Positions 3,014 through 49,091 of a stretch of DNA of 64,000 bases are shown in pieces. Position 1 is the stretch's first letter; each line of letters opens with the position of its first letter. Source of the DNA: an uncultured Candidatus Saccharibacteria bacterium (lineage in GTDB: Bacteria > Patescibacteriota > Minisyncoccia > Minisyncoccales > CAYJUL01); NCBI GenBank assembly GCA_964401295.1, contig CAYNXX010000001.1:137076-201075 (forward strand). Direction: 5' to 3'. The notes below the pieces were generated by a model that saw nothing but the letters and a program-made list of their open reading frames with translations, searched no databases and was not told the DNA's origin. The position numbers and the translations under genes were made by a program.

Positions 3014-3100
3014 GCCCGGGTGGCGAAACTGGCAGACGCACAGGACTCAAAATCCTGCGAGAGCAATCTCATGAGGGTTCAAGTCCCTCCCCGGGCACCA
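3014..3100 (+). tRNA. tRNA-Leu (anticodon CAA), class II with long variable arm, CCA encoded
   Basis: Acceptor GCCCGGG pairs with CCCGGGC. U8 is present. The D-arm GGCGAAACUGGCAGACGC is Leu-like. The anticodon stem is CAGGA/UCCUG with loop CUCAAAA. A long variable arm and T-arm GAGGGUUCAAGUCCCUC are present. The sequence ends A-CCA. Confidence 0.85.
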
Positions 3101-3132
3101 AAACTAACTTTGTCGGAAATGACTGCTCCGCG
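3095..3132 (+). repeat. Copy A of the 37-nt tRNA-3'-end-associated site (gcaccaaaactaactttgtcggaaAtgactgctccgc); one mismatch versus copies B and C
   Basis: Direct comparison with 45085-45121 (same orientation) and 46672-46708 (reverse complement). The single difference (A versus T) falls in the central AATT. Confidence 0.9.
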
Positions 3133-3275
3133 CGCCCCGATAAAAACTGCTAAAGATCTGTAAAAACATCGGCTCGAACCATATTTTGTAAAAGCAGGGG
3201 GGAATTTTTTTTAAAACTGAATACTTGATTCTAAAATCAACAACCTCGCTGATTTTTTGTTTCTGATACAAGCTA

Positions 3276-3348: not shown

Positions 3349-3663
3349 ATGGACCATAGCAACCTTGCAGGTCAGAAGTATTCCCACAGTCAATGTGTTC
3401 ACGGCAGGTGCCTTGACCACGGACCGGAGTGGGAAAACGTCGGTGAAGTGCGGCGCGAGCCCAATCCAGGAATCTTCGGTAAGAAGACCTCCGGGATGAA
3501 CCGTTGCTGCGGCAAGCCGATGACGCAGTACAAAGAAGTGCAGACGCAGCGGTGTCGTAAATGCGGACGTACCAAAGATCACATAACGAACTACCGCCTC
3601 GTATTCTGCCTCTGCTGCGGCTACCACTTCACCAAGTCCGGCAGCTCATTATTTACCCCCTAA
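3349..3663 (+). CDS. Small Cys-rich hypothetical protein P1 (104 aa, 10 Cys, CxxxxC / CC / CxxC / CxCC pattern); visibly GC-rich compared with the host
   Basis: The ORF has a consensus promoter, a strong RBS and an intrinsic terminator. Its G+C is visibly above the ~35-40% of flanking genes. It lies between the tRNA-Leu-associated repeat copy A and the hairpin motif m1. Confidence 0.6.
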   Translation: MDHSNLAGQKYSHSQCVHGRCLDHGPEWENVGEVRREPNPGIFGKKTSGMNRCCGKPMTQYKEVQTQRCRKCGRTKDHITNYRLVFCLCCGYHFTKSGSSLFTP

Positions 3664-3680
3664 TGGTCGAGATGTAACAA

Positions 3681-3722: not shown

Positions 3723-3782
3723 CGTTTTTGAAATTATCCGGTTCGCGGCGAAGCCACTCATTTTTTGTGGGAGTTTCCTCGC

Positions 3783-3816
3783 CGCTGTAGGCGGCGAAAT
3801 GCATTTGAACTATTTT
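3783..3816 (+). repeat. Motif m1: short GC hairpin (cgccgcTGTAGgcggcg) plus the tail aaatgcatttgaactattttaag. It is related to inverted motif m2 at 42868-42901.
   Basis: About 29 of 33 nt are identical to the reverse complement of 42868-42901, and the upstream hairpin is analogous. Both sit at the tRNA-distal end of a GC-rich islet. Confidence 0.6.
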
Positions 3817-3876
3817 AAGAATTGGGTACTACAAAGACGGGCAGAAAGCCCGTCTTTGTGACCGCTCAAATACTAG

Positions 3877-4404
3877 TTATTTAAACCGCCTGACAAGGCT
3901 TGGCGCAAAAGAAACAACCAACCATCCGCTCAAAATACCTATAACCGCTCCCCCTACAACATCTGTCGGCCAGTGGACGCCCACGAAAACGCGGGCTAAA
4001 GCTATTGCACTGCTGGCAAGCAAAAATGCAACGCCGGCTTTTTTGTTATAAAGATAGAAAACAGTTGAGAGCGCGAAATAAAAAGTGGCGTGGCCAGACG
4101 GAAAAGAATCATAAAGTGGTTCCCTACCGACGAGCGGAATGATATTTCCGTTAACAAACGGTCTTGGACGCGCGATAAAAAAACGTATAATCTCGGCAAC
4201 AATAAATCTTGAAAAAAATGCGGCAATTAATCCCTGCCATACCATCGGCCAGTATTTTTGGGCACGAAGCAAAAGAAAAATCGGTATGGTTAAAAGTAGT
4301 GCGTATCCCGCATATGTGGCGAAAAAAATAGCCACCGTGTCTAACCAGATATATTTCAATGTAAATCCGTTGATTAGCCTAAAAAGATATTGATCTATGG
4401 TCAT
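3877..4404 (-). CDS. PAP2-family phosphatase (undecaprenyl-diphosphatase / PgpB-like) membrane protein
   Basis: PAP2 signature motifs are present: RPRP, SFPSGHA and GVHWPTDV. Confidence 0.8.
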   Translation of the reverse strand: MTIDQYLFRLINGFTLKYIWLDTVAIFFATYAGYALLLTIPIFLLLRAQKYWPMVWQGLIAAFFSRFIVAEIIRFFIARPRPFVNGNIIPLVGREPLYDSFPSGHATFYFALSTVFYLYNKKAGVAFLLASSAIALARVFVGVHWPTDVVGGAVIGILSGWLVVSFAPSLVRRFK

Positions 4405-24021: not shown

Positions 24022-27000
24022 TTATATCTTTTGGATACCAAGACGCAACGGCTTGCCATCAACTTTTATCTCTTTGGCTTTTGGATATTTTTTAAAAACG
24101 AGGTCCTTTGCTCGCGTTTCCTGCAGGATTGTTTTTTTGTTTTTGGCGATAATATCCAAAAGCCTGTCTTGGCCTTCGCAAAATATAATTATTGAGTGTT
24201 TCGGTTTAAGACCGGCTCTTTTACGCTCTTCCTGCAGAGTTCTGATAACCTCTCTTATCATGCCTTCTTCTTTAAGCTCTGGCGTAATTTCCGTATCAAG
24301 CGAAAAAGTTTTTCCAAAAATTATATTTTTGACATTTACTTCATCTTTAATAAGTTCCAGCAATTTTTTCTTTTTCTGCAATTCTCTCTGCGCTATCGCA
24401 AGCTCTTTCAACGGCTGCCTCACTTTAATGCCGGCTCTGGCTCTTGCCGCCAGCGCCGCGGCGACGATATCGCGCGCCAAATCCATATCTTTTTCCAATT
24501 CTTGGCTTAATAAGCTTTTCGCAAGCACAGGCCATTTTTCCAGATGCAAACTTTCTTTATATCTGCCTTTTTTTTGGGTGATACGAAGATAAATATCTTC
24601 GGAAATAAATGGCACGAATGGAGCGCAAAGCCTGCAAACGTCGCGCAAGACAGATGCCAACACCGAACATGCAACCTTAGAATCTTTATCTTTTTCTTTT
24701 TTTTGCAAACGGCGCCTTGATCTTCTAATATACCACTGGGACAAATCTTCAATGACAAAATTTTCCAGAGTTCTTGCGGCCTGCATAATATCGTAATTAT
24801 CCAAGCTCGCTGTTACATTTTTTATAGTCGTTTGAAGCTTTGAAAGTATCCACGAATCCAAAACTCCAAGATCTTTTACGGGCGGATTTTTTGTATACTC
24901 TTGCGAATAAGTATCAAAAAATATATAACAATTCCACAGGATTAAAATAAATTTTTTGAACGCTAAATCTATATCTGATTCTTTGAAAAGCTTCGCCTCT
25001 CCCGGCTGGTTAACAGTGTAAAAATACCACCTTACTGCGTCGGCCCCATATTTATCCAACACAGCCCAAGGATTTACGGCATTGCCTTTAGACTTTGACA
25101 TTTTTTCTCCCCTTTCGTCCAAAACATGGCCTAGGGAAATAACGTTTTCATACGGCGCGCTAAATCCTAGTGCGCTTGAAATGGCAAGTAGTGTGTAAAA
25201 CCAGCCCCGCGTCTGGTCTACAGCCTCGGAAATATAATCGGCTGGGAATAATTCTGGCGGATTTAATTTCCGATTTTTGCGCTCACCGACATGCGCGAAT
25301 GGCCAATGACCTTGCGCAAATGGCATTGCTCCGGAATCAAACCAGACATCGCTAACATCTTTAACCCTCTTCATAATCCTGCCGCACTTTTGGCAATAAA
25401 ATTTTACTTCATCAATATATGGGCGGTGCGGATCAAATTGACCTTTTTCATCTAGGGGCACTTTTTTATATTCTACCTTGCGGATTTCTCCAGTACGCGG
25501 CCCGCCGACATTCTGTTTTATTTTCAAGATCCTTTCATCGCTCAAGCCAGCCAGCGTATTTGTAAGCAGCCAAAGCGGATCGCCGTGGCTGACAATCAAA
25601 ATTTTTGAATTTTTATGTTTTTTTTCTATGGAGTCAAGAGCATCAAATACTCTTTTTCTACATTGGCCGTAATTCTCTCCCCCGGCCGGTTTTTTATCAT
25701 AAAACCTATCGAGCTTGAGCGGAAAATCTTGATAAAATCTTTCTTTTGTGCCACCGTGATACCCGCCCAAATTGATATCCCTTAATCTTCGATCAAAAAC
25801 TATTTTAACTCCACCCAGCTCTTTGGAAACTATTTTTGCGCTCTGACGTGTGCGCATAACGTCCGAAGCGTAAATTATGCTTATTTTTTCCTTTTTGAGT
25901 TTCTGCGCGCATTTTCTGATTTGCTTCTCACCCTCTTTGGTCAAAAATACTGGCTCTTTTTCTGGCCACGGATACATAAAAGCTGTTTTTTTTGTCTGAT
26001 ATTCGGTCTGGCCATGACGTATTACATAATATTCATTGGTTGAAAATTTTTTTGAAAATAAATCCTGCTTGGATCCTATTGCGCATACATCTTTGCACTC
26101 AGTGCACTGCCAAAGCGGTAAGGGCGTACCCCAATATCTTTCGCGCGAAAAAGCCCAATCTTTTACTTCTTTAAGCCATTCGCCGAACCTACCTTCTTTA
26201 AGATGCTCCGGAATCCATTTTATTTGTTTGTTATTTTCCAGCAGCCGATCTTTTATCGCTGTTATTTTCACGAACCACGACTCTTTGGCGTAATACAAAA
26301 GCGGCGAGGCGCAACGCCAACAGAAAGGATAATCATGTTCGTATATTTCTTCCCCAAAAAGCAAACCGCGTTTTTTCAAATCTTCTTTAATTAGTTTATC
26401 TGCATCTTTGACAAACAATCCATTCCAGGTATAACCGGGGGTTATCATTTTTCCCTGGCCATCAACGGTCAATAAAATCGGCGCGCTATCGGCATATTTT
26501 TTGACCGCTTCCATATCTTCCTCTCCGAAAGCCGGCGCTATATGAACTAACCCGGTACCCTCATCTTTTGATATAAAATTGCCGGCAATTAAACTATATG
26601 GCTTGAAGTTGGAATCCGAAACGATTGAACCGACATAGAAAGGTTCATATTCCAAACCCAATAACTTTTTGCCATTTATTTCCTGAATAATTTCGCAGTC
26701 TTCTCCTAAAATGTTTAACCTATTCTTGGCTAAAATAAAATTATCATTGCCCTTTTTTGCTTTTACGTAAATAAACTCTGGGTTTACAGCTATGGCAATA
26801 TTGCCAGGCAGCGTCCATGGAGTTGTGGTCCAAACTAAAAGATAGTCATTTTTTTTACCTTTTATCCTAAATTTTATATATATTGCCGGCTCTTTTATTT
26901 TTTTGTATCCGAGTGCTACTTCGTGGCTTGAAAGAGAAGTTCCGCACCGCGGGCAATAGGGCACGACCTTAAAATCTTTGCGCAAAAGTCCTTTTTCCCA

Positions 27001-27480
27001 AACTCTTTTTATGATCCACCATAAAGTTTCAATATAATCGGCTTCGTATGTCACGTATGGATGTTCCATGTCTAGCCAAAAGCCGATTCTTGCAGTTAAT
27101 TTTTCCCATTCTTTTTTATAAAGCCAAACTGATTGTCTGCATTTTTTATTAAATCTGGCAATGCCATATTTTTCTATATCTTTTTTATTTTTTAGACCAA
27201 GTTCCTTTTCTATCTCAAGCTCTACTGGCAGACCATGCGTATCCCAACCGGCCTTGCGCAAAACGCGAAACCCCCGCATGGTTTTATAACGGCATATAAT
27301 ATCTTTATAGACCCTAGCCTCTACGTGATGTATTCCGGGCCGGGCGTTGGCGGTCGGTGGACCCTCATAAAAGACAAAGTCGCGGGCTCTGGCTCGCTGT
27401 TTCACGCTTTTCTCAAAAATCTTGTTTTTCTTCCAATATTTCAGTATTTTTTGTTCTTGTTTTGGGAAATTTATTTCCAT
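24022..27480 (-). CDS. ileS: Isoleucyl-tRNA synthetase (type 2) carrying an inserted histidine-phosphatase (PGAM-like) domain
   Basis: HH/HVEARV, KMSKS and anticodon-binding regions are present. Total length is 1152 aa, longer than usual. Residues ~476-680 contain RHGQTE ... SHG, the histidine phosphatase signature. They lie between LWQCTECK and the conserved HRPYIDEV...CGRIMKRV...VWFDSG segment. Confidence 0.9.
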   Translation of the reverse strand: MEINFPKQEQKILKYWKKNKIFEKSVKQRARARDFVFYEGPPTANARPGIHHVEARVYKDIICRYKTMRGFRVLRKAGWDTHGLPVELEIEKELGLKNKKDIEKYGIARFNKKCRQSVWLYKKEWEKLTARIGFWLDMEHPYVTYEADYIETLWWIIKRVWEKGLLRKDFKVVPYCPRCGTSLSSHEVALGYKKIKEPAIYIKFRIKGKKNDYLLVWTTTPWTLPGNIAIAVNPEFIYVKAKKGNDNFILAKNRLNILGEDCEIIQEINGKKLLGLEYEPFYVGSIVSDSNFKPYSLIAGNFISKDEGTGLVHIAPAFGEEDMEAVKKYADSAPILLTVDGQGKMITPGYTWNGLFVKDADKLIKEDLKKRGLLFGEEIYEHDYPFCWRCASPLLYYAKESWFVKITAIKDRLLENNKQIKWIPEHLKEGRFGEWLKEVKDWAFSRERYWGTPLPLWQCTECKDVCAIGSKQDLFSKKFSTNEYYVIRHGQTEYQTKKTAFMYPWPEKEPVFLTKEGEKQIRKCAQKLKKEKISIIYASDVMRTRQSAKIVSKELGGVKIVFDRRLRDINLGGYHGGTKERFYQDFPLKLDRFYDKKPAGGENYGQCRKRVFDALDSIEKKHKNSKILIVSHGDPLWLLTNTLAGLSDERILKIKQNVGGPRTGEIRKVEYKKVPLDEKGQFDPHRPYIDEVKFYCQKCGRIMKRVKDVSDVWFDSGAMPFAQGHWPFAHVGERKNRKLNPPELFPADYISEAVDQTRGWFYTLLAISSALGFSAPYENVISLGHVLDERGEKMSKSKGNAVNPWAVLDKYGADAVRWYFYTVNQPGEAKLFKESDIDLAFKKFILILWNCYIFFDTYSQEYTKNPPVKDLGVLDSWILSKLQTTIKNVTASLDNYDIMQAARTLENFVIEDLSQWYIRRSRRRLQKKEKDKDSKVACSVLASVLRDVCRLCAPFVPFISEDIYLRITQKKGRYKESLHLEKWPVLAKSLLSQELEKDMDLARDIVAAALAARARAGIKVRQPLKELAIAQRELQKKKKLLELIKDEVNVKNIIFGKTFSLDTEITPELKEEGMIREVIRTLQEERKRAGLKPKHSIIIFCEGQDRLLDIIAKNKKTILQETRAKDLVFKKYPKAKEIKVDGKPLRLGIQKI

Positions 27481-31387: not shown

Positions 31388-31837
31388 ATGCCCGTCCTGG
31401 CCGAAAATAAAAAAGCCCGCTTCAACTACGAAGTACTGGAATCGTTTGAAGCCGGTATCGTTTTGAAGGGCCAAGAAGTAAAATCAATAAAATCGGGGGG
31501 TATCGCCCTTGCCGGCTCTTATGTTGTTGCCCGCGGCGGCGAAATATGGTTCGTGGGCGCTAATATTCCGCCCTACCAGCCCAAAAATACAACGGCAAAC
31601 TACGATCCCCAGCGGCCGAGAAAATTACTTTTAAAGAAAGAGGAAATAAAGTATTTATTTGGCAGATCCCAGCAGCGAGGCTTGACTTTGGTACCATTAA
31701 GGTTATATACTAAGCAGGGCAGAATAAAATTGGAATTCGGGATCGCCAGACACAAAAAGAAATTCGGAAAAAAACAAACCATTCAAAAAAGGCAGACGCA
31801 AAGAGAAATAGAAAGAGAGCTAAAAACGCGGGGATGA
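31388..31837 (+). CDS. smpB: SsrA-binding protein SmpB
   Basis: The N-terminus reads KKARFNYEVLESFEAGIVLKGQEVKS. Total length is 149 aa. Confidence 0.95.
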   Translation: MPVLAENKKARFNYEVLESFEAGIVLKGQEVKSIKSGGIALAGSYVVARGGEIWFVGANIPPYQPKNTTANYDPQRPRKLLLKKEEIKYLFGRSQQRGLTLVPLRLYTKQGRIKLEFGIARHKKKFGKKQTIQKRQTQREIERELKTRG

Positions 31838-32173
31838 CACAGTTTCGATAGAAGAACTTTTTAAAACATGCGGGCCGAGGCCGATCAAAGCCTCGTTAAA
31901 ATTTGATCAACTAAATAAGTGCCAACTTATTTAACCAACCAGCTTACGCTTTAGCATAAGCCATTTGAAATAATAGATTCTCGATAATTATTTCGGGTGC
32001 AAACCAATCGAGATCGGCGGTTTCTTTGATCTGGAGCGCTGCCGAAAACAACAGATCAAGATGGCGGGCGTTTCGTCCGCTTTCAAGTCCGCCATTTTCC
32101 AAAGTGGACTACACTCGTAGAACTGTTTTAAAAAACATTCTAGACGCGGGGGCAGAACCCGCCATCTCCACCA
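31830..32173 (+). ncRNA. ssrA: tmRNA (ssrA), ~344 nt; tag ORF GCC...TAA encodes (A)NLFNQPAYALA
   Basis: The 5' end GGGGAUGACACAGUUUCGAUAG resembles the E. coli GGGGCUGAUUCUGGAUUCGACGG. It forms a perfect 7-bp acceptor stem with the 3' end ...CAUCUCC-A-CCA, including a G3:U70 pair. A tRNA-like 3' arm GACGCGGGGGCAGAACCCGCC is present. The tag reading frame runs 31921-31959 and ends ...YALA-TAA. The RNA starts within the smpB stop codon. Confidence 0.8.
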
Positions 32174-41958: not shown

Positions 41959-42219
41959 TTATACTTTGTAAACCCTGTAGTCCGGTCTGACTTTTTGATC
42001 AACCTTAAGGCCGATGGATTCTCCGGGCTTGGCCGATTCCACTTTCTTGTGATCCACTTCCATGGACTCAATGGTTTGTATAAAATCGGTTTCGCCGCCC
42101 ACTAGACGTATGCGCTCGCCAACGTTCAGTTTTTTTGAAAGCTCCAAAACTGCCACGCCGATGTTCGCAAAATAATGTGTTACTTTGCCAATTAATTCTC
42201 CTTGTATTTCTTCCGGCAT
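41959..42219 (-). CDS. Hypothetical small protein (86 aa)
   Basis: ORF only. It is slightly GC-richer than the host and may belong to the islet. Confidence 0.3.
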   Translation of the reverse strand: MPEEIQGELIGKVTHYFANIGVAVLELSKKLNVGERIRLVGGETDFIQTIESMEVDHKKVESAKPGESIGLKVDQKVRPDYRVYKV

Positions 42220-42292
42220 GATAAATAAATTACTTATTATACGACCTTTAACTGATTTTTATTATATCATCTTTGAAATAATTAAAAAGGAG

Positions 42293-42544
42293 CTAGTCGC
42301 TCCTTCTGCCATTCTTTGATTTGAATATTGCATACGCAATATTTAGCGTAGCTTTGTAGTCTTCTTTAGAAAGGCGCAGCTGCTCTTGATGGTACAGTCT
42401 CGCACCATCTTCTCGTACGGCGCCGCACTTTACTATTCTACCATTCCTCTCTATAAACGAGATGGATAGCGGGGGTATCGAAATAACCACCATCTGAACT
42501 TTTTGATTTATTCTTTCAACGCGGGTAACTTTAATCTGCGACAA
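42293..42544 (-). CDS. Hypothetical small protein (83 aa)
   Basis: ORF only. An SD-like ggagg lies upstream. Confidence 0.3.
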   Translation of the reverse strand: MSQIKVTRVERINQKVQMVVISIPPLSISFIERNGRIVKCGAVREDGARLYHQEQLRLSKEDYKATLNIAYAIFKSKNGRRSD

Positions 42545-42867
42545 CTCTGCCTCCTTTCATTATTTGCTAACTGCCACGAAATGGCATGGCAGATCGAAAT
42601 CCTCCGCGGGGCTATGAAAACATGCTTGCCCAGGGCGTTTGGGTCGGAAAATTCTTTGACAAGATATTTGCGTCATGCCAGTTATAATTCCTCAGACCGC
42701 CGAAGCTGACGGTGATTCGACCATAGTCAACAGCAACAAAAAACATTTTGTACCTCTTTTTTAAGCTACAACCTGTTAAATATACCAGATTTTATCTTGA
42801 AAGTCAAGAATAAAGACCTGTGCGACGCGCTGGGCTTAAAATATGGCGCAGAATGCTTGAAATAATT

Positions 42868-42901
42868 CGAATGCATTTCGCCGCCGCAAACGGCGGCGAA
42901 A
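42868..42901 (-). repeat. Motif m2: inverted copy of m1 (hairpin cgccgcCGTTTGCggcggcg plus tail aaatgcattcgaattatttcaag)
   Basis: The reverse complement aligns to 3783-3816. It is adjacent to the P4 terminator hairpin at ~42907-42935 (GCGGAAG...CUUCCGC + UUUUU on the minus strand). Confidence 0.6.
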
Positions 42902-42946
42902 CAGAAAAAGCGGAAGTCGAACGGCTTCCGCTAGTCTATAGCAGGG

Positions 42947-43639
42947 TTATTTCTTCTTAACGACCATCTGAAAATCCAGCAAGTCTTTCCCAAGCGTAGC
43001 ATCATTGCGCTTGAGCATGATTTCTTGATAGCCTATCAACTTTCCTGTTTCGTCAACTACCTCCACTAGTCGTGTGTAGTATGGAGCATTATAGCAATCA
43101 CCGCTTTTAAGAATCTGTTCTGCCTCGTAAGCAGTATTGACTCGCCGTTTGTACTCGTCCTTGATATCCTCAAAGACGCCACTAACGCCGATTTCAAGAT
43201 ATTCGGTTTTGTACGAGGCTGAGGTCAATGCCTCAACGGTAAAGTCATACAACCAATAGCGCAATTCTTGCGCCCAATCGCCATTCGCAACTTTCAATTG
43301 AGGAACGCGCTGAATTAATCGGGTAAAGGCATAATTGAACTCCCCGACATACGCTCCCTCATAGTTATACTTAGCACCGACTTCGTAAATTGCTTTTGCA
43401 AGATTCGCTTCACTTGAATCGGCCTCAGATCCCCTAACGACAAAACGAAGACATTGCGCAACTTTGAGGAAAACAGATTTGTAAAATGGAATGGGTGATG
43501 AGCTGCTGTCTATAATGATGGAGTGAAGATGTTGCGCAACTTTGAGGAAAACAGATTTGTAAACCTTAAGGAGCGATAGATTGCTATTTACCCTCGCTAC
43601 AATATCGGCCACAAGCCGCTCTACTGCGGCATCAAGCAC
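42947..43639 (-). CDS. Hypothetical protein P4 (230 aa) with an internal in-frame 81-nt tandem duplication (KSVFLKVAQ..., twice); GC-rich islet cargo
   Basis: The 32-nt strings at 43455-43487 and 43536-43568 are nearly identical. No recognisable domain was found. The start is GTG, with an AGGAGG ~59 nt upstream. Confidence 0.45.
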   Translation of the reverse strand: MLDAAVERLVADIVARVNSNLSLLKVYKSVFLKVAQHLHSIIIDSSSSPIPFYKSVFLKVAQCLRFVVRGSEADSSEANLAKAIYEVGAKYNYEGAYVGEFNYAFTRLIQRVPQLKVANGDWAQELRYWLYDFTVEALTSASYKTEYLEIGVSGVFEDIKDEYKRRVNTAYEAEQILKSGDCYNAPYYTRLVEVVDETGKLIGYQEIMLKRNDATLGKDLLDFQMVVKKK

Positions 43640-44010
43640 TTCGCGATCCGTAGACTTGCCATCAGTCTTTTTGCTTGGTACGTATGGCGTGTTGATAACC
43701 TCCTATTTTAAAGTAGCTATTTGCTAATTGCAAGTTAGCAAAGTGAATTAAGTATATCAATGGGTCGATGGGGTGGGTATAGTATTAAATAAAATTATAA
43801 AAAACTCTTTCGCAAAATGAGACAGCCAGCTGTTTTTTCACCCAAACTACCTTATGATTTAGTTGCCGAGGGACGGCGCGGGAAAGATGGATCGGGGAAG
43901 AATGCCCGTGCCGTCTCGCTTCCGAAAGTTTACGCTGACGGTTGCGAAAACAAATATAAGTAAAGAGTGATGAAAGGATTTGTTTTCACGATGATTATCC
44001 TTTGATATTT

Positions 44011-44060
44011 TAAGAAAATAGAAAGCGCCTTGCGGGTTAATTCGTTCTTCGCGAATTCCG
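44011..44060 (-). terminator. Long nested hairpin (AGCGCCUUGCGG...CCGCAAGGCGCU, 12-bp stem) followed by a U-rich tract on the minus strand; terminator of the HAD pseudogene
   Basis: The inverted repeat was read directly from the sequence. The T-rich run follows on the minus strand. Confidence 0.5.
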
Positions 44061-44098
44061 CAAGGCGCTTGTAGACGAAGCGAAGTTCATCATCATTG

Positions 44099-44800
44099 CT
44101 AGCTGAGGTTCTTGATCGGGGTGGAAACATCGATCTCTCGCCAGTCGAAAAAGATGCGACAAATGCCCGCATCAACTAGCGCGCCTATTGTGATGCCACG
44201 AATCACAACCGGCATCCCAATAGCCTTGGAACCAGCGGCGAGCGCGGCTTTCACGCCCGGTGGCGAATCCTCGAAAACAAGCTGCTCATGGGGATCAATC
44301 TCCATAATTGAGGCAGTTTTCAAGAACACATCCGGCGCCGGTTTTGGGTTCGCGACGTGCTCACGGAGCACAATGTTGCGCTGACCAAAAAGTACCATGA
44401 GACCAGATCGCTCAAGAAGCGTTATCGCGTACTTCTTAGGCGTGAGCGATCCGATTGCGAACTTAAGGCCAAGATTACGCACCTCTCTGAAGAAATCTAA
44501 GAATCCGACGCGGGGCTCGATTGGCATCTCCGCAAGTAGACGTTCGTAGTGAAATTTGTTGCGAGCCAAGATGTCATCGACAGATAAACGATTGCGTGTG
44601 TCGGGATCCAAAAGATCCCGGATATCCTCGCATACCTTTTCGTCAGGTCCACCGATGAAGTGAGGAAGCTTGCTATAGGCTTCGTCGAGCGAGATCCTAA
44701 GTCCTAATTCGCTTGCGACGGCGAGATGTCCGTTATGGTGAGCGACCTCGACATCAACAACAGTGCCTTAGAGATCAAAGGCGATTCCACGAATAGGCAT
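44099..44800 (-). pseudogene. HAD-superfamily hydrolase (beta-phosphoglucomutase-like) interrupted by an in-frame TAA inside the catalytic DxDGT motif (MPIRGIAFDL*GTVVD)
   Basis: The ATG at 44800 gives MPIRGIAFDL, then TAA at 44768-44770. The same frame then continues GTVVD...DSPPGVKAALAAG to 44099. Motifs II-IV are intact. Confidence 0.7.
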
Positions 44801-45084
44801 TACCCATCTCCTTCTTTCTGGATTTTAACTGTCAAGGAACGATCATATAATAACAGAGTTGAATTTAAATGTAAATAGTTAACAAAACAGAGTCCGTAAG
44901 AAATTCTGCGATAAAATCATATGAAATTTTTCTTATCAGTTCTAAAAACCGTCGGCGCAAACTTTTGGGGGCAACGACAGTGCGGGAATTTGCCTCCCCT
45001 CGCCCCCTGTCTTTCCCACCAGAGCGGTTTGGGATTTTACGAAATGCCGCATCAAAAAAGGTTCGCGCGAAATGTATAATTACA

Positions 45085-45156
45085 GCACCAAAACTAACTT
45101 TGTCGGAATTGACTGCTCCGCTTTTGTTTTTGCCGTAAAATCCCAGAGTTCGCCCC
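45085..45156 (+). repeat. Left terminal inverted repeat (copy B, 72 nt) of the recombinase module
   Basis: Nucleotides 1-36 are identical to the reverse complement of 46673-46708. Nucleotides 37-72 match the reverse complement of 46591-46626 with one mismatch. Confidence 0.9.
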
Positions 45157-45165
45157 AATAACCAT

Positions 45166-46769
45166 ATGAAAGAGCTCAAACCAAAAACTCAATGCATTCT
45201 CTATGCTCGGAAATCAACCGAGGAGGATGATAAGCAAGTGATGAGCATAGAAGCTCAACTGTTTGAATTGCGCGAATTTGCCGAGCGAGAACGCATTGAG
45301 ATAATCCGTGAGTTCACGGAAGCGGAAAGCGCAAAGAAACCCGGACGAGAGGAATTTGCCAAAATGCTTTCCTTAATTGAAATAAGCAAAAAGCCGCTCG
45401 GCATTTTGGCATGGCACCCCGATCGTCTCGCCCGCAATAGCGTGGACGGCGGCAGAATCATTTATCTCGTGGACACCGGAGCTATTGCTTCTTTGCGCTT
45501 TCCGCAATTTTGGTTTGAGCCAACTCCGCAAGGGAAATTCATGTTGCAAGTGGCGTTCGGGCAATCAAAGTATTTCTCGGATAACTTGGTTGAAAATGTG
45601 AAGCGCGGTATCCGCCAAAAACTCAGCCGCGGCGAATGGCTGACGCTCGCTCCTTTGGGATATGTGAACAACTACAAAATACGGAACATTGACCCGCACC
45701 CTACTTACGCAAAAGTCATCAAGCGAGCGTTTGAAGAGTACGCCACGGGAAAATATACGCTCGTCGGTTTAGCGGAGTTTTTAGCGGGGCATGGCGTTGT
45801 TCAGAAAAAAGGAACGCCACTTGCAAAAGTTTCCGTCGTGAAAATGCTTACTAACCGAGCATATCTAGGATTTGTAAAATTTCATGGCGAATACCACGAC
45901 GGAAACTTTGAGCCGATTCTTTCCCCGACACTGTTTGAAGCAGTACAGAAAGTATTGAAAAGCAAGCAAAGACCGCGCAAACAGAAAGAGCGATACGATT
46001 TCCCTTTTACGCAGTTTGCGCGGTGCGGCGAGTGCGGAAATATGATTACGGCGCAGTATGCCACCAATCGCTGGGGCACGCGCTATACTTACTACCGTTG
46101 CACCAAGAAAAGCGGGCATTGTAGCCAGCCGTATCTTTCCGCCGATACGCTCGCCGCCCAAGCGCAAACCCTGTTTCAATCAGTGTCGCTTCCTCTCGCG
46201 GAAATTGAGGTTATGGAAAAGCAGATTGACACACGGGAGAAAGAAGAAATTTCCGCGAGAGGAGATGTTGCCCAAAATCTTAAAGCAAAACTCAAGAGGC
46301 GCAGGAGAAGCTAGGCCGGCTTGTCTCGCTCTATTTGGACGACGACATCGAACGAGAACTCTATCTCACAAAGAAAGACGCGCTCCTTCGCCAAAAAGCC
46401 AAGCTGGAAGAAAGTTTGGGAGATTTTGGGCAACAGGGAAAGAATCAGCTCGAACCCTTGCGGAGTTTCGTTTTGTCCTTGAGAGAAGCGGAAAAAGTGG
46501 CGCAAACAAAAAATCACGCCGACTGGCGCAACTTTTTCCGTTCGCTCGGCTCTAACCCCGAGATCAAGGATAAAACGCTTTCAATCAACTGGGGCGAACT
46601 CTGGGATTTTACGGCGAAAACAAAAGCGGATTTTGCCCTGCGGAGCGAGCCGTCCGCCGCGCGGACGGCGAGCGGAGCAGTCAATTCCGACAAAGTTAGT
46701 TTTGGTGCGCCTACGAGGATTCGAACCCCGATCTCGAGCTCCGGAAGCTCGTGTTCTATCCATTAAACT
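45166..46769 (+). pseudogene. Large serine recombinase (resolvase/invertase N-domain, recombinase domain, zinc ribbon, coiled-coil) with a -1 frameshift near 46294-46296
   Basis: The N-terminus reads CILYARKSTEEDDKQ...SIEAQ, containing the catalytic Ser. The C4 zinc ribbon reads CGECGNMITAQY...YYRCTKK. Frame 1 ends ...KAKLKRRRRS* at 46314. The coiled-coil continues in frame 0 (..KEAQEKLGRLVSLYLDDDIERELYL...). Restoring one A in 'ctcaagag' joins the two. Combined length is ~534 aa. Confidence 0.75.
46591..46708 (-). repeat. Right terminal inverted repeat (copy C) with a 46-nt GC-rich palindromic insertion (GCCGUCCG-CCGCG-CGGACGGC)
   Basis: See copy B. The outer end begins at the GCACCA 3' end of tRNA-Arg. 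Confidence 0.9.
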
Positions 46770-46777
46770 ATGGGCGC
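46703..46777 (-). tRNA. tRNA-Arg (anticodon CCG), CCA encoded
   Basis: The reverse complement is GCGCCCAUAGUUUAAUGGAUAGAACACGAGCUUCCGGAGCUCGAGAUCGGGGUUCGAAUCCUCGUAGGCGCACCA. The fold is a cloverleaf with anticodon loop UUCCGGA and a T-loop UUCGAAU. There is one C:A mismatch in the acceptor stem. Confidence 0.8.
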
Positions 46778-46792
46778 AGGATAATTTTTATA

Positions 46793-47482
46793 TTATTTTT
46801 CAGCGACGAAATAAAAGTTTTGTCGGCTGCCGGTTTGGCTGCGGATTGTTCCGATTTGCCTCATTTTAAATCCGGCGCTCTTTGCCAACCAGTTTAATTC
46901 AATTTTTGTGAAGCAGTGATAATAACGATTTGTTTTATCTGACCAAGGTTCCCAGATGTCTCCAAAATCCAATTTTGAAAATCCAAATATTTTTAAAATC
47001 CCGAATTTAATTCTTAAATATATCTCCTTTAGCCAACAGAATTTCCAAACCGTAACAATTAAAAGCCCGCCGGATTTTAAAACTCTTTTCGCTTCCAGTA
47101 AAAATTGTTTTCTGAATTCATTTGATGGAATATGATGTAAAACCGCAATGCTGTAAATTTTATCAAACTGGTTCTCTGAAAATAGTAATTTTAAAGATTC
47201 GCTTGTTTTAAATTCGTATTCGGGATATTTTTTTTTAGCGATTTCGACCAATTTTTCTGAAGTATCTACGCCAATATAAGAAATTTTTCTATTTTTCAAA
47301 AATTCAATCAATCTTCCATTGCCGCAGCCCAAATCCAAAACATTGTCGCCCGGCAACGCATAATCCATAAGAGGTCCAAGTTCCAACCAAGGCTTTTCTC
47401 TTGTCCTTGAAAAATCTTCGGCAATCAGGTTATAATCCTCTCTGACCCTATTTAAAAGGTAGTCTGCGTAATTTTTATCCAT
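46793..47482 (-). CDS. Class I SAM-dependent methyltransferase (likely start MDKNYADYL)
   Basis: The SAM-binding motif reads VLDLGCGNGRL. The ORF is open to 47581. Confidence 0.75.
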   Translation of the reverse strand: MDKNYADYLLNRVREDYNLIAEDFSRTREKPWLELGPLMDYALPGDNVLDLGCGNGRLIEFLKNRKISYIGVDTSEKLVEIAKKKYPEYEFKTSESLKLLFSENQFDKIYSIAVLHHIPSNEFRKQFLLEAKRVLKSGGLLIVTVWKFCWLKEIYLRIKFGILKIFGFSKLDFGDIWEPWSDKTNRYYHCFTKIELNWLAKSAGFKMRQIGTIRSQTGSRQNFYFVAEK

Positions 47483-49091
47483 GACGATTGCGGAGTTTAC
47501 AATTAAAGAATTAATGAAGGGCGAAGCGCGCGAAGCGCGGAACCTTGCCGCCATTAAGAGAAAGGCGGCCAAAAAATACAAAATGCCCTGTCCGAAAAAC
47601 TCAAAACTACTCCAAGCATATCACGACTTGGTGCTAAATAAAAACATGATTGCAGATAAAAATTTGGAGCTGCTTTTGCGCAAAAGAAAGGTAAGATCAC
47701 TTTCGGGAGTGGCCGTAGTTTCTATCCTTACAAGGCCATATCCATGCGGCGGAAGGTGCATTTACTGTCCAACGCAATCAGGCGTGCCTAAAAGTTATTT
47801 AGACGGCGAACCTGCTGTAATGAGAGCTTTATCGCATAATTATGATCCTAAGGAGCAAATACTATCCCGAATAAAAACATTGGAAGCCAACGGCCACCCA
47901 ACCGACAAAATAGATTTAAGGATTATCGGCGGAACGTGGTCTTATAATCCAAGACGCTACCAATCCTGGTTTATTAAAAAGTGCTTTGAGGCCGTGAATG
48001 AACTTAGTAGAATCAGAAATCCGAAAAATGCTAATCTTAACCGTCTTCAAACTTTAAACGAAAAAGCCAAATACAGAATTGTAGGCATAAATGTTGAAAC
48101 AAGGCCTGATTATATAAACCGGGGGGAAATAGTACGCATGCGAAAACTCGGCATAACGCAAATAGAACTCGGCGTGCAAAGCGTATATGAAGATGTGCTG
48201 AAATTAAACCGGCGAGGCCATGGCGTAGATACGGTTATCAATACCACAAAACTTTTAAAAGATGCTGGATTCAAAATTTGCTATCACATAATGTCTAATC
48301 TCCCAGGATCAACTCCGAAAAAAGACATTAAAACATTCGAAGAAATTTTTTTCAATCCCGATTTCCAACCGGACCATATTAAAATATATCCCTGCGCTCT
48401 GGTAAAAGAAGCTCCTCTTTATTGGCTGAAAGATAAAATCGGCTACCGCCCATATTCGGCAAAAAAACTCGTCGCCATTATAAAAGAGGGTAAAAAATAT
48501 ATCCCTTATTATTGCCGCATACAGCGCGTTATCAGAGACATACCGGCAACATACATCATTGAAGGCGGAACTGCGATTTCAAACCTAAGACAAGTCGTAA
48601 GTGATGAAATGAAAAAAGAAGGGTCAAGATGCCGGTGTATACGCTGCCGAGAAGTAAAAGAAAATTACGACGCGGGCGAAAAGATATATCTCTTCCGCCA
48701 GGACTATGAAGCGTCCGACGGCAGGGAAATTTTCCTAAGTTTTGAAAATAAAAACAGGACGAAATTGCTCAGCTTGCTTCGACTGCGCATCCCTTCTTAT
48801 ATTTTTTGCAAAAAAAATAAATCTCTCTTCACGACGCTGAAAAATTCCGCCTTTATACGCGAAATACATACTTATGGCCAACTGCAGCCATTAACTGCTG
48901 CGGCGCTCCACAAAAACTCGCCGCAACATAAAGGCCTTGGGAAACAATTGATGCGAGAGGCCGAAAAAATAACACTTAGCTTCGGACTGCAAAAAATTGC
49001 AGTTATTTCAGCTGTCGGCACAAGAGAATATTACAGAAAATTCGGATACCAACTCCAAAATACTTACATGATAAAAAATTTACGCAATTAA
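47481..49091 (+). CDS. elp3: Elp3-like radical-SAM/GNAT tRNA modification enzyme (tRNA uridine(34) acetyltransferase homolog)
   Basis: The radical-SAM motif reads CGGRCIYC. The C-terminal GNAT motif reads QHKGLGKQLMREAE. Total length is 536 aa. Confidence 0.8.
   Translation: MTIAEFTIKELMKGEAREARNLAAIKRKAAKKYKMPCPKNSKLLQAYHDLVLNKNMIADKNLELLLRKRKVRSLSGVAVVSILTRPYPCGGRCIYCPTQSGVPKSYLDGEPAVMRALSHNYDPKEQILSRIKTLEANGHPTDKIDLRIIGGTWSYNPRRYQSWFIKKCFEAVNELSRIRNPKNANLNRLQTLNEKAKYRIVGINVETRPDYINRGEIVRMRKLGITQIELGVQSVYEDVLKLNRRGHGVDTVINTTKLLKDAGFKICYHIMSNLPGSTPKKDIKTFEEIFFNPDFQPDHIKIYPCALVKEAPLYWLKDKIGYRPYSAKKLVAIIKEGKKYIPYYCRIQRVIRDIPATYIIEGGTAISNLRQVVSDEMKKEGSRCRCIRCREVKENYDAGEKIYLFRQDYEASDGREIFLSFENKNRTKLLSLLRLRIPSYIFCKKNKSLFTTLKNSAFIREIHTYGQLQPLTAAALHKNSPQHKGLGKQLMREAEKITLSFGLQKIAVISAVGTREYYRKFGYQLQNTYMIKNLRN

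Follow-up and report, generated by a model that had tools for sequence, protein, structure and literature searches.

Copies of a 37-nt sequence at tRNA 3' ends in a Patescibacteria genome are probably attachment-site arms of small elements carrying a large serine recombinase

Why does the same short sequence follow two different transfer RNA (tRNA) genes and also precede a recombinase gene? This question is raised by 64,000 nt of DNA from an uncultured Candidatus Saccharibacteria bacterium (contig CAYNXX010000001.1 of assembly GCA_964401295.1, positions 137,076 to 201,075), a stretch which we call the window. A 31-nt sequence, AAACTAACTTTGTCGGAA(A/T)TGACTGCTCCGC, occurs in it at 3101-3131 (+, with one mismatch), 45091-45121 (+) and 46672-46702 (-). 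Together with the preceding GCACCA it forms three 37-nt copies, namely A (3095-3131, +), B (45085-45121, +) and C (46672-46708, -). They exist as claimed in an earlier note on this DNA, and judging by 100 dinucleotide shuffles of the window, no chance match to the 31-mer is expected. As the note had also stated, copies A and C start with the final six bases of tRNA-Leu(CAA) and tRNA-Arg(CCG), respectively, since ARAGORN and Rfam place the ends of these tRNAs at 3100 (+) and 46703 (-). Comparison with related loci suggests, with a probability of about three in four, that the copies are arms of attachment sites belonging to small mobile elements, which a large serine recombinase would insert at tRNA 3' ends. 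Each 37-mer would consist of the junction core and the proximal ~33 nt of an arm termed Y below, the probability given being that of the whole model.

The recombinase gene next to copies B and C matches three Pfam families (PF00239, E = 4.5e-20; PF07508, E = 4.3e-13; PF13408, E = 1.9e-9). Comparison with five relatives revealed that it is disrupted by a 1-nt deletion at ~46291-46296. Using the repaired protein as query, thousands of serine-recombinase matches were retrieved, the best 120 of which are 57-92% identical; source-named relatives among these 120 are Parcubacteria-type bacteria. Many homologs lie on contigs of just 1.7-2 kb. The proteins (~515-550 aa) consist of an N-terminal Resolvase domain with the nucleophilic serine, a Recombinase domain and a Zn-ribbon. 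The YARKS motif is invariant, with Y13, R15 and S17 present in 17 of 17 aligned members, as are the CxxC...C cysteines. Residues ~340-440 are rich in E, K and L in the alignment and may form a coiled coil. With regard to solved structures the recombinase is remote, the sole match being to the catalytic domain of 3guv. A paralogous family with 39-45% identity shows equal layout (L036, L051, L065 and L068; such numbers denote the related loci). No relatives were found in IMG/VR viral contigs, for which reason phage origin was rejected. The element family is very common in Patescibacteria, the bacteria of the candidate phyla radiation (CPR). The literature searched, which is incomplete, so that a prior description is possible, holds no description of it.

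Two samples were compared. The genome set comprises 80 loci fetched from one-genome-per-species data, out of at least 561 relatives. Metagenomes were scanned with the query AACTTNNNCGGAAWTGACTGCTCCGC, which gave at least 120 contigs, with 138 sites among the matches listed. Conclusions on layout are drawn over ~200 related loci, and in these the order of parts is constant. Starting from the tRNA, it comprises the T/Y junction, R in antisense, the Y'/X' junction, variable cargo and the X/F junction, where T is the 3' part of the tRNA, R the recombinase gene, F the native trailer of the tRNA, and X and Y two kinds of repeat, primed in the opposite orientation. F usually opens with a terminator-like hairpin. 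The elements are ~3-9 kb long.

An antisense tRNA whose 3' end lies at ~+1540 from the recombinase ATG is present in 65 of the 80 genome loci, and the docked tRNAs belong to nine amino-acid types (Leu, Ala, Glu, Arg, Tyr, Val, Phe, Ser, Lys). Some genomes of ~1 Mb contain two or three recombinases at different tRNAs (L011/L041/L049 in one metagenome-assembled genome; L010/L061; L068/L071; L043/L070). The inverted repeat Y/Y' flanks the gene in 70 of 72 evaluable genome loci; its median length is 130 nt, and identity between its arms is 97% or more in 53 loci, 37 of which show 100%. The left arm, Y', reaches from ~-123 to +7 and includes the 5' untranslated region or leader and the ATG, while the right arm extends from ~+1413 as far as the end of the tRNA and includes the last ~43 codons. 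In aligned relatives the C-terminal tail is read first from the 31-mer in reverse complement (..NSDKVSFGA..) and next from the antisense tRNA. In the window, too, the inverted repeat around the recombinase exceeds the 37 nt noted earlier (45085-45157 on the left, 46590-46708 on the right), and similarity of copy A to relatives reaches ~3134. The DNA for the conserved C-terminal motif ..SINWGELWDFT.. is, base for base, the reverse complement of the 5' leader and ATG of the same gene (46590-46630 versus 45117-45157 in the window, and equivalent positions in L001-L080). Therefore, the two ends of the mRNA could pair with each other, which would hide the ATG, and protein and leader would be mutually constrained.

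Just outside the left Y arm lies X, a conserved segment containing GTTCG(C/A)GCAAA..TATAAT. The TATAAT is located 6-12 nt from the junction core, and relatives read, by eye, TCGAAA-N17-TATAAT. This arm is always found upstream of Y, even if no second X is found within 10 kb. An inverted second X occurs 1.1-7 kb farther upstream in 28 of 42 loci with sufficient upstream DNA. The X'/X repeats are 150-370 nt long, except in L057 (87 nt), and mostly 100% identical. Cargo enclosed between X copies includes solute symporters and transporters, AdoMet synthetase, an SF1 helicase-nuclease, an AAA_15 ATPase, a C5 methylase fused to RadC, RhuM, ART-PolyVal and peptidases, with defence-like nucleases, ATPases and methylases among it. 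Cargo genes are nearly always opposite in strand to the recombinase. Genes for replication or transfer were not encountered in the sampled cargo, and the cargo of 26 elements holds no conserved gene that could be a candidate directionality factor, although such a factor could be small and have escaped recognition, or be encoded outside the cargo. Cargo is exchanged much faster than the recombinases diverge, because recombinase genes with 91-96% DNA identity and similar arms accompany wholly unrelated cargo (L028/L033/L037/L040, L065/L066 and L015/L022). At the cargo position of L051, beside a paralogous recombinase at tRNA-Ser, there is a 67-nt palindrome (3926-3992), in which an X arm meets its own inverted copy; the cargo slot of this element seems to be empty.

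We examined where the junctions break. Among 22 loci with X'/X repeats (T/Y was recovered for 16), T/Y, X/Y and X/F have in common just a core of 4-8 nt, N-C-(A/G)-C, which corresponds to tRNA nucleotides 71-72, the discriminator and C74. The core is GCAC in tRNAs of Leu type, TCAC in Glu, CCAC in Ala and CCGC in Ser, so that its first base co-varies with tRNA class (G in Leu, Arg, Tyr and others, T in Glu, C in Ala and Ser). In 41 of 53 pairs, identity of X/Y with T/Y starts at GCAC, TCAC, CCAC or CCGC, and flanks beyond are at random level. Since all three junction types have their common core there, the crossover appears to occur at the tRNA end. This pattern would be expected of site-specific exchange at the tRNA end and not of a transposon or a tyrosine-integrase island. 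The earlier note had placed the crossover in the central AATT. This position was rejected, as the break lies at N-C-(A/G)-C, ~23-25 nt away, in every junction type, and variant counts speak against it as well. The A/T mismatch that was thought to disable copy A is a common natural variant: at this position, ~25 nt from the core, 45 sites have A and 93 have T, both variants adjoin intact recombinases, and in 16 of 18 pairs the same letter is found in both arms.

The distance of a GTTCG motif from the core differs between the two kinds of arm. It is 18 nt in tRNA arms (35 of 35 loci), in which the motif belongs to the T-loop, and 24 nt in X arms (32 of 35 loci); the same spacing is seen in the metagenome set. 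Serine integrases read attP and attB, the attachment sites of element and host, through the same motifs, positioned ~5 bp farther out in attP. For LI integrase, Rutherford et al. in 2013 reportedly described a zinc-ribbon-domain motif shifted by ~5 bp between attP and attB. Because of this shift and of the more distant GTTCG in X, we regard X as the P-type arm and the tRNA as the B-type arm, and GTTCG is presumably bound by the enzyme. As a separate observation, the native tRNA gene lacks an encoded CCA in some loci, such as L004 (F starts ..GCAC/ATAAT), and the inserted Y arm supplies it (GCAC/CATAAG); integration therefore alters the genomic encoding of the tRNA 3' CCA.

Metagenomic sites, all of the Y subtype of the window, extend these results. 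A tRNA 3' end precedes 71 of the 138, with 8 amino-acid types and 14 anticodons represented: Leu (five anticodons), Arg (three), Lys, Val, Met, Tyr, Ile and Gly. Inspected tRNA arms end in ..GCAC, mostly GCACCA. Another ~35 sites follow X-type arms. The recombinase is antisense at all 34 T/Y sites that have a recombinase match alongside. Together with the 65 docked loci of the genome set, these counts bear out the proposed link of the copies to the adjacent recombinase and to recombination at tRNA 3' ends. Where enough sequence is present, 39 tRNA-linked sites have a full Y arm and 16 are truncated like copy A (the scan pattern is blind to stubs shorter than 36 nt, hence minimum stub length is uninformative). 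In several truncations Y(36) is joined to a distal inverted X arm, i.e. the recombinase module is deleted (L087, L187, L200 and copy A in the window). A mini-remnant, tRNA-Leu/Y(52)-X(22)/F, was observed in L121 (site 2650, -); the stretch from CGCGC in Y to CGCGC in X is deleted there, which leaves the half-sites back to back.

Such remnants may be used again. In L105 and L112, tRNA-Leu(GAG) is followed by Y(40)F, whereas L163, from another sample, reads ..AATTACA/Y(40)F. On the flank leading up to the core, identity of L163 with L105 is 100% along 1944 nt, and L112 is identical along all 471 nt of this flank that L112 contains. These are the empty (L105, L112) and the occupied (L163) allele of one site, L163 counting as occupied because the ..AATTACA that it has beyond the core is the terminal part of an X arm. 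Old Y stubs with X joined to them are also found in L022, L082 and L191, and in the tandem arrays of L183, L127 and L065 the newer element lies between the tRNA and the older one. Because of these alleles, stubs and arrays, the tRNA/Y junction seems to remain a usable target.

Comparison shows the layout, the common core, the motif spacing, the empty and occupied alleles, the tandem arrays and the turnover of cargo. The following course of events is proposed. The recombinase would cut and rejoin DNA at a dinucleotide within the core, probably nucleotides 71-72; strand exchange is placed there because the first core base co-varies between X arm and tRNA, like a matching overlap dinucleotide. 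X/Y would serve as attP, and the tRNA end with its native trailer or a leftover Y stub as attB, so that integration would yield T/Y (attL) and X/F (attR), the left and right junctions. The internal inverted X/Y would represent a second attP and at the same time promoter and leader of the recombinase gene, where bound recombinase could autoregulate. Resolvases are known to repress their own gene at res. The distal X copy would carry that promoter too, facing host DNA on the downstream side of the interrupted tRNA; in L065 this DNA is the next tRNA of an operon.

With this layout in mind, the tRNA-Arg region of the window can be read as follows (coordinates, strand, feature).

42852-42902, minus strand: X-type arm of the paralogous kind, inverted; 80% inverted match to 3773-3823, also matching L068 and L179
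42947-44611, minus strand: cargo, with a DUF6899 protein (42947-43639) and a HAD-family hydrolase (44099-44611), both by Pfam
45047-45084, plus strand: X arm, putative attP-type left arm, GGTTCGCGCGAAATGTATAATTACA; conserved in relatives
45085-45157, plus strand: copy B with the rest of the left Y arm; internal X/Y junction (attP-like) and recombinase 5' leader; 40 nt missing in comparison with the right arm
45166-46766, plus strand: large serine recombinase gene; Pfam Resolvase, Recombinase and Zn_ribbon_recom; 92% identical to P0001
46590-46708, minus strand: right Y arm including copy C (46672-46708); tRNA-Arg/Y junction, attL-like
46703-46777, minus strand: tRNA-Arg(CCG), by ARAGORN and Rfam; converges on the recombinase gene; T arm of copy C

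Copy C thus appears as the attL-like junction of an element docked at tRNA-Arg, and copy B as its probable internal attP-like site that is also recombinase promoter and leader. In the X arm at 45047-45084, GTTCG lies 24 nt before the core and the TATAAT box is directed into Y and the recombinase gene. The cargo genes are opposite in strand to the recombinase, like those of relatives. The segment at 42852-42902 probably represents the distal, attR-like end of the element, which would be composite. The element appears to be decaying, as judged from the frameshift, the 40-nt arm deletion and the mismatched X arms. The right Y arm holds an extra 40-nt hairpin segment (46631-46670) that is missing from the left arm, and the open frame of the recombinase crosses the right Y arm into antisense tRNA-Arg. 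Because arm deletion and frameshift depart from the family norm, the window copy is considered a degraded member. GC content of 42000-48000 is 0.45 with skew near zero, compared with ~0.41 and -0.1 elsewhere; these values fit a foreign origin of the element. The DUF6899-matching cargo frame also contains two 66-nt direct repeats (43447-43512 and 43525-43590, 77% identical, 78 nt apart).

Copy A had been regarded as a partner of this same element. Its surroundings point instead to a separate, decayed one.

3014-3100, plus strand: tRNA-Leu(CAA), by ARAGORN and Rfam; its 3' end is the T (attB-type) arm of copy A
3095-3134, plus strand: copy A, tRNA-Leu/Y(36); GCAC core (3095-3098) and ~36 nt of Y arm, ending at the base of the first Y hairpin
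3142-3197, plus strand: remnant of the distal X-type arm of a paralogous element, inverted; 93% match to L068 2618-2674 (minus strand), also matching L127 and L090
3349-3666, plus strand: Cys-rich open reading frame of 105 codons with its own promoter-like and terminator-like flanks
3726-3829, plus strand: proximal X-type arm (GTTTGAAC..TAAGAAT) ending in core-like GTAC (3826-3829); 81-84% match to X arms of L068, L127 and L090
3833-3857, plus strand: terminator-like hairpin AAAGACGGGC-N-GCCCGTCTTT, identified from the sequence, as usual at the start of F in relatives

The T-loop GTTCA of tRNA-Leu is placed 18 nt before the GCAC core, matching other docked tRNAs, and copy A is of the same truncated type as the 16 metagenomic T/Y sites mentioned above. 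It appears to be the attL remnant, or a solo docking site, of a second element of ~0.73 kb (3095-~3830) that has lost its recombinase module. The segment at 3142-3197, as translated from the sequence, still encodes a recombinase 3'-end fragment (..KNIGSNHIL*). The frame at 3349-3666 has no Pfam match and, given its position, would be residual cargo. Alignment with L068 (..AAGAATGGA/GCAC) locates a junction at 3826-3829, and 3726-3829 would accordingly be the attR-like X/F junction. The hairpin at 3833-3857 is probably the native trailer of tRNA-Leu. No empty site for either tRNA of the window was found among the fetched loci. The direct repeats A and B were also considered as ends of a 42-kb island. 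This was rejected, as the 39 kb separating the two elements encodes IleRS, LeuRS, ArgRS, GlmS, PolX and transfer-messenger RNA (tmRNA), and copy B is an internal X/Y site.

Several observations weigh against the proposed model. It is built on sequence comparison, and no circular form was seen. The X/old-Y junctions and the tandem arrays would need something like recombination of attP with attL, of which canonical serine integrases are not capable. In L163, the X portion amounts to just 7 nt before the contig ends. Dyad symmetry of X and Y, visible in the window (TTCGCGCAAAGT-N23-ACTTTGTCGGAA), was dismissed, as matches across the family are not significant (10.9 versus 10.6 +/- 0.2). A consensus promoter scan of the window did not call the X-arm TATAAT, as the -35 region is weak there. 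The model gives no reason why identity is maintained over entire arms of 130-370 nt and not over ~50 bp; gene conversion is our default guess. For the left boundary of the tRNA-Arg element at 42852, the sole support is the 80% match to an arm of paralogous type. Finally, recombinase modules in opposite orientation are found in L018 (compared with syntenic L012), L039, L058, L011 and L042, and these could be errors of short-read assembly across the 130-nt repeat.

Inverted sites on both sides of the recombinase are also what a DNA-inversion system would have. The 1.6-kb recombinase module could flip as a switch between element promoter and tRNA read-through, and perhaps large blocks such as that between copies A and C could invert. 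The presence of both module orientations relative to the tRNA (L018 versus L012; L039 with X on the far side) is in line with this, and so are L011 and L042, where a tRNA stands on either side; a chromosomal inversion between two tRNA sites would produce this arrangement. Standard orientation, however, prevails in 34 of 34 metagenomic T/Y sites and ~65 of 70 genome loci, rare flips may be assembly errors, and inversion alone cannot explain the many tRNA targets, empty and occupied alleles, tandem arrays and cargo. As to the window, the earlier note suggested that recombination between A and C would invert 43.6 kb. Both copies are of the attL-type tRNA/Y kind and the recombinase is frameshifted; GC skew is negative across the whole window, with no reversal at 3.1 or 46.7 kb, so that nothing suggests recent inversion of this block, which was thereby discarded. 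Inversion as the general explanation is quite improbable. Less probable still, and largely refuted, is the view that the 31-mer is a tRNA trailer, processing signal or terminator of the host lineage with a recombinase that is merely adjacent. Two copies do directly follow a tRNA CCA, and hairpins of the full Y arm could terminate tRNA transcripts. Nevertheless, among ~70 undocked tRNAs in the 80 loci the 31-mer follows one, the tRNA-Leu of the window itself, and thus it is no general trailer. It also follows non-tRNA X arms (at least 35 sites) and is at once recombinase leader and reverse complement of the last codons. An RNA structure of the Y arm as trailer or leader was likewise abandoned, since Y folds no stabler than shuffled sequence (z = -0.1 to -1.1).

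Another explanation that we consider unlikely restricts the mobile unit to Y-R-Y'. It would resemble an insertion sequence with 130-nt terminal inverted repeats and a circle joined at a palindromic Y'/Y, and X'-cargo-X would be a second, non-autonomous cassette, the array at the tRNA end having been built stepwise. Each module is indeed bounded by its own near-perfect inverted repeat and abuts its neighbour at the common core, cargo turns over independently of the recombinase, and the 67-nt X'X palindrome of L051 is without cargo. The numerous homologs on 1.7-2 kb contigs would also suit such a unit, but these contigs are what an assembler puts out when the 130-nt inverted repeat collapses and are not independent evidence. 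The order of modules, moreover, is fixed, with the recombinase module always tRNA-proximal and cargo always distal; X with its TATAAT stands upstream of Y even where a second X is missing within 10 kb; and neither a tRNA/X' junction nor the layout tRNA-Y-R-Y'/F was seen among ~200 loci. We therefore prefer integration of the whole element, from T/Y to X/F. A further-reaching version of this preferred model, which we put forward tentatively and rate as rather doubtful, is that the elements constitute a self-contained gene-capture platform of ultra-small bacteria that operates with one enzyme and without a directionality factor. Sites would be told apart mainly by one half-site, T-arm versus X arm, with the same GTTCG shifted by 6 bp. 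At nearly every tRNA with a matching core, the enzyme could then insert modules, excise them, invert them or stack them. The internal attP would double as operator and promoter of the recombinase, long X repeats would permit swaps of cargo cassettes between elements, and leftover tRNA/Y stubs such as copy A would serve as landing pads.

We compared the family with known systems. Its enzyme class is known by domains: Resolvase with a YxRxS serine, Recombinase and Zn-ribbon are shared with serine integrases (phiC31, Bxb1, A118/LI integrase, TP901-1, CcrAB of SCCmec, TnpX/TndX). Likewise shared are a short core common to the junctions, absence of long direct repeats and an outer motif that is ~6 bp farther from the centre in the attP-type arm than in the attB-type arm. 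Unlike these integrases, the family targets 3' ends of many different tRNA genes, retains a second, inverted internal attP that is also recombinase promoter and leader, keeps 130-370-nt repeats identical, has no conserved candidate directionality factor that we could find, and seems to keep its tRNA/Y junction usable as target. It thus appears to consist of serine-integrase elements with an unusual double inverted-repeat layout. Insertion at tRNA 3' ends, tandem elements or remnants and accessory or defence cargo are reminiscent of tyrosine-integrase tRNA islands (P4-like, Islander-type). In contrast to these, the enzyme is of serine type and no tRNA 3' fragment is directly repeated, just the 4-8-nt core being in common; the tRNA body is never duplicated because the junction lies at nucleotides 71-74.

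Inverted own sites bounding a segment with the recombinase gene in or beside it are known from Hin/Gin/Cin/Pin and from the yeast 2-micron plasmid (Flp/FRT). If a circular form of the element exists, two unique segments would be parted by two inverted site-bearing repeats, as in 2-micron. Neither system integrates at tRNAs, however; Hin/Gin/Cin/Pin are small enzymes (~190 aa) with a C-terminal helix-turn-helix, 26-bp inverted sites and an enhancer with Fis, and Flp is a tyrosine recombinase. IS607-type serine transposons differ in having an N-terminal DNA-binding and a C-terminal catalytic domain and low target specificity, whereas here the catalytic domain is N-terminal and the targets are tRNA 3' ends. 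The filamentous phages phiRSM of Ralstonia reportedly (Askora et al., 2011, reference 22 in PMC7192596) use a small resolvase-like serine recombinase with attB at the 3' end of tRNA-Ser. Serine recombinase and attB position are alike; the phiRSM enzyme is a small resolvase-type protein without Recombinase and Zn-ribbon domains, acting in phage context on a single tRNA target, with no inverted-repeat modules. The nearest ecological analogues are the tycheposons of Prochlorococcus, small cargo elements of streamlined genomes whose integrase types are tied to tRNA genes (bioRxiv 10.1101/2020.12.28.424599). According to that source, 27 of 937 tycheposons use a large serine recombinase and most use tyrosine recombinases, often together with replication genes, unlike the sampled cargo here. 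The same text, so far as consulted, describes no counterpart of the double inverted-repeat layout (bioRxiv 10.1101/2020.12.28.424599).

Mobile elements of Patescibacteria are poorly described, and this family may be among their main vehicles of accessory genes. If our reading is true, it provides a natural set of large serine recombinases recognising a landmark that is universal, the T-loop and acceptor end of tRNA, with target choice apparently tuned by the core dinucleotide. Integration might be reversed without an accessory factor; landmark reading and reversibility would both be of interest for genome-engineering tools. The family would also explain recurrent contig breaks and orphan contigs of 1.7-2 kb in CPR assemblies.

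Two further observations concern the DNA between the elements. The tmRNA gene at 31830-32173 (+) was detected with Rfam (RF00023, 108 bits) and was not reported by ARAGORN. A class I aminoacyl-tRNA synthetase of Ile/Val type (24022-27480, -) carries a His_Phos_1 domain inserted at residues 484-656, which splits its catalytic domain into two halves.

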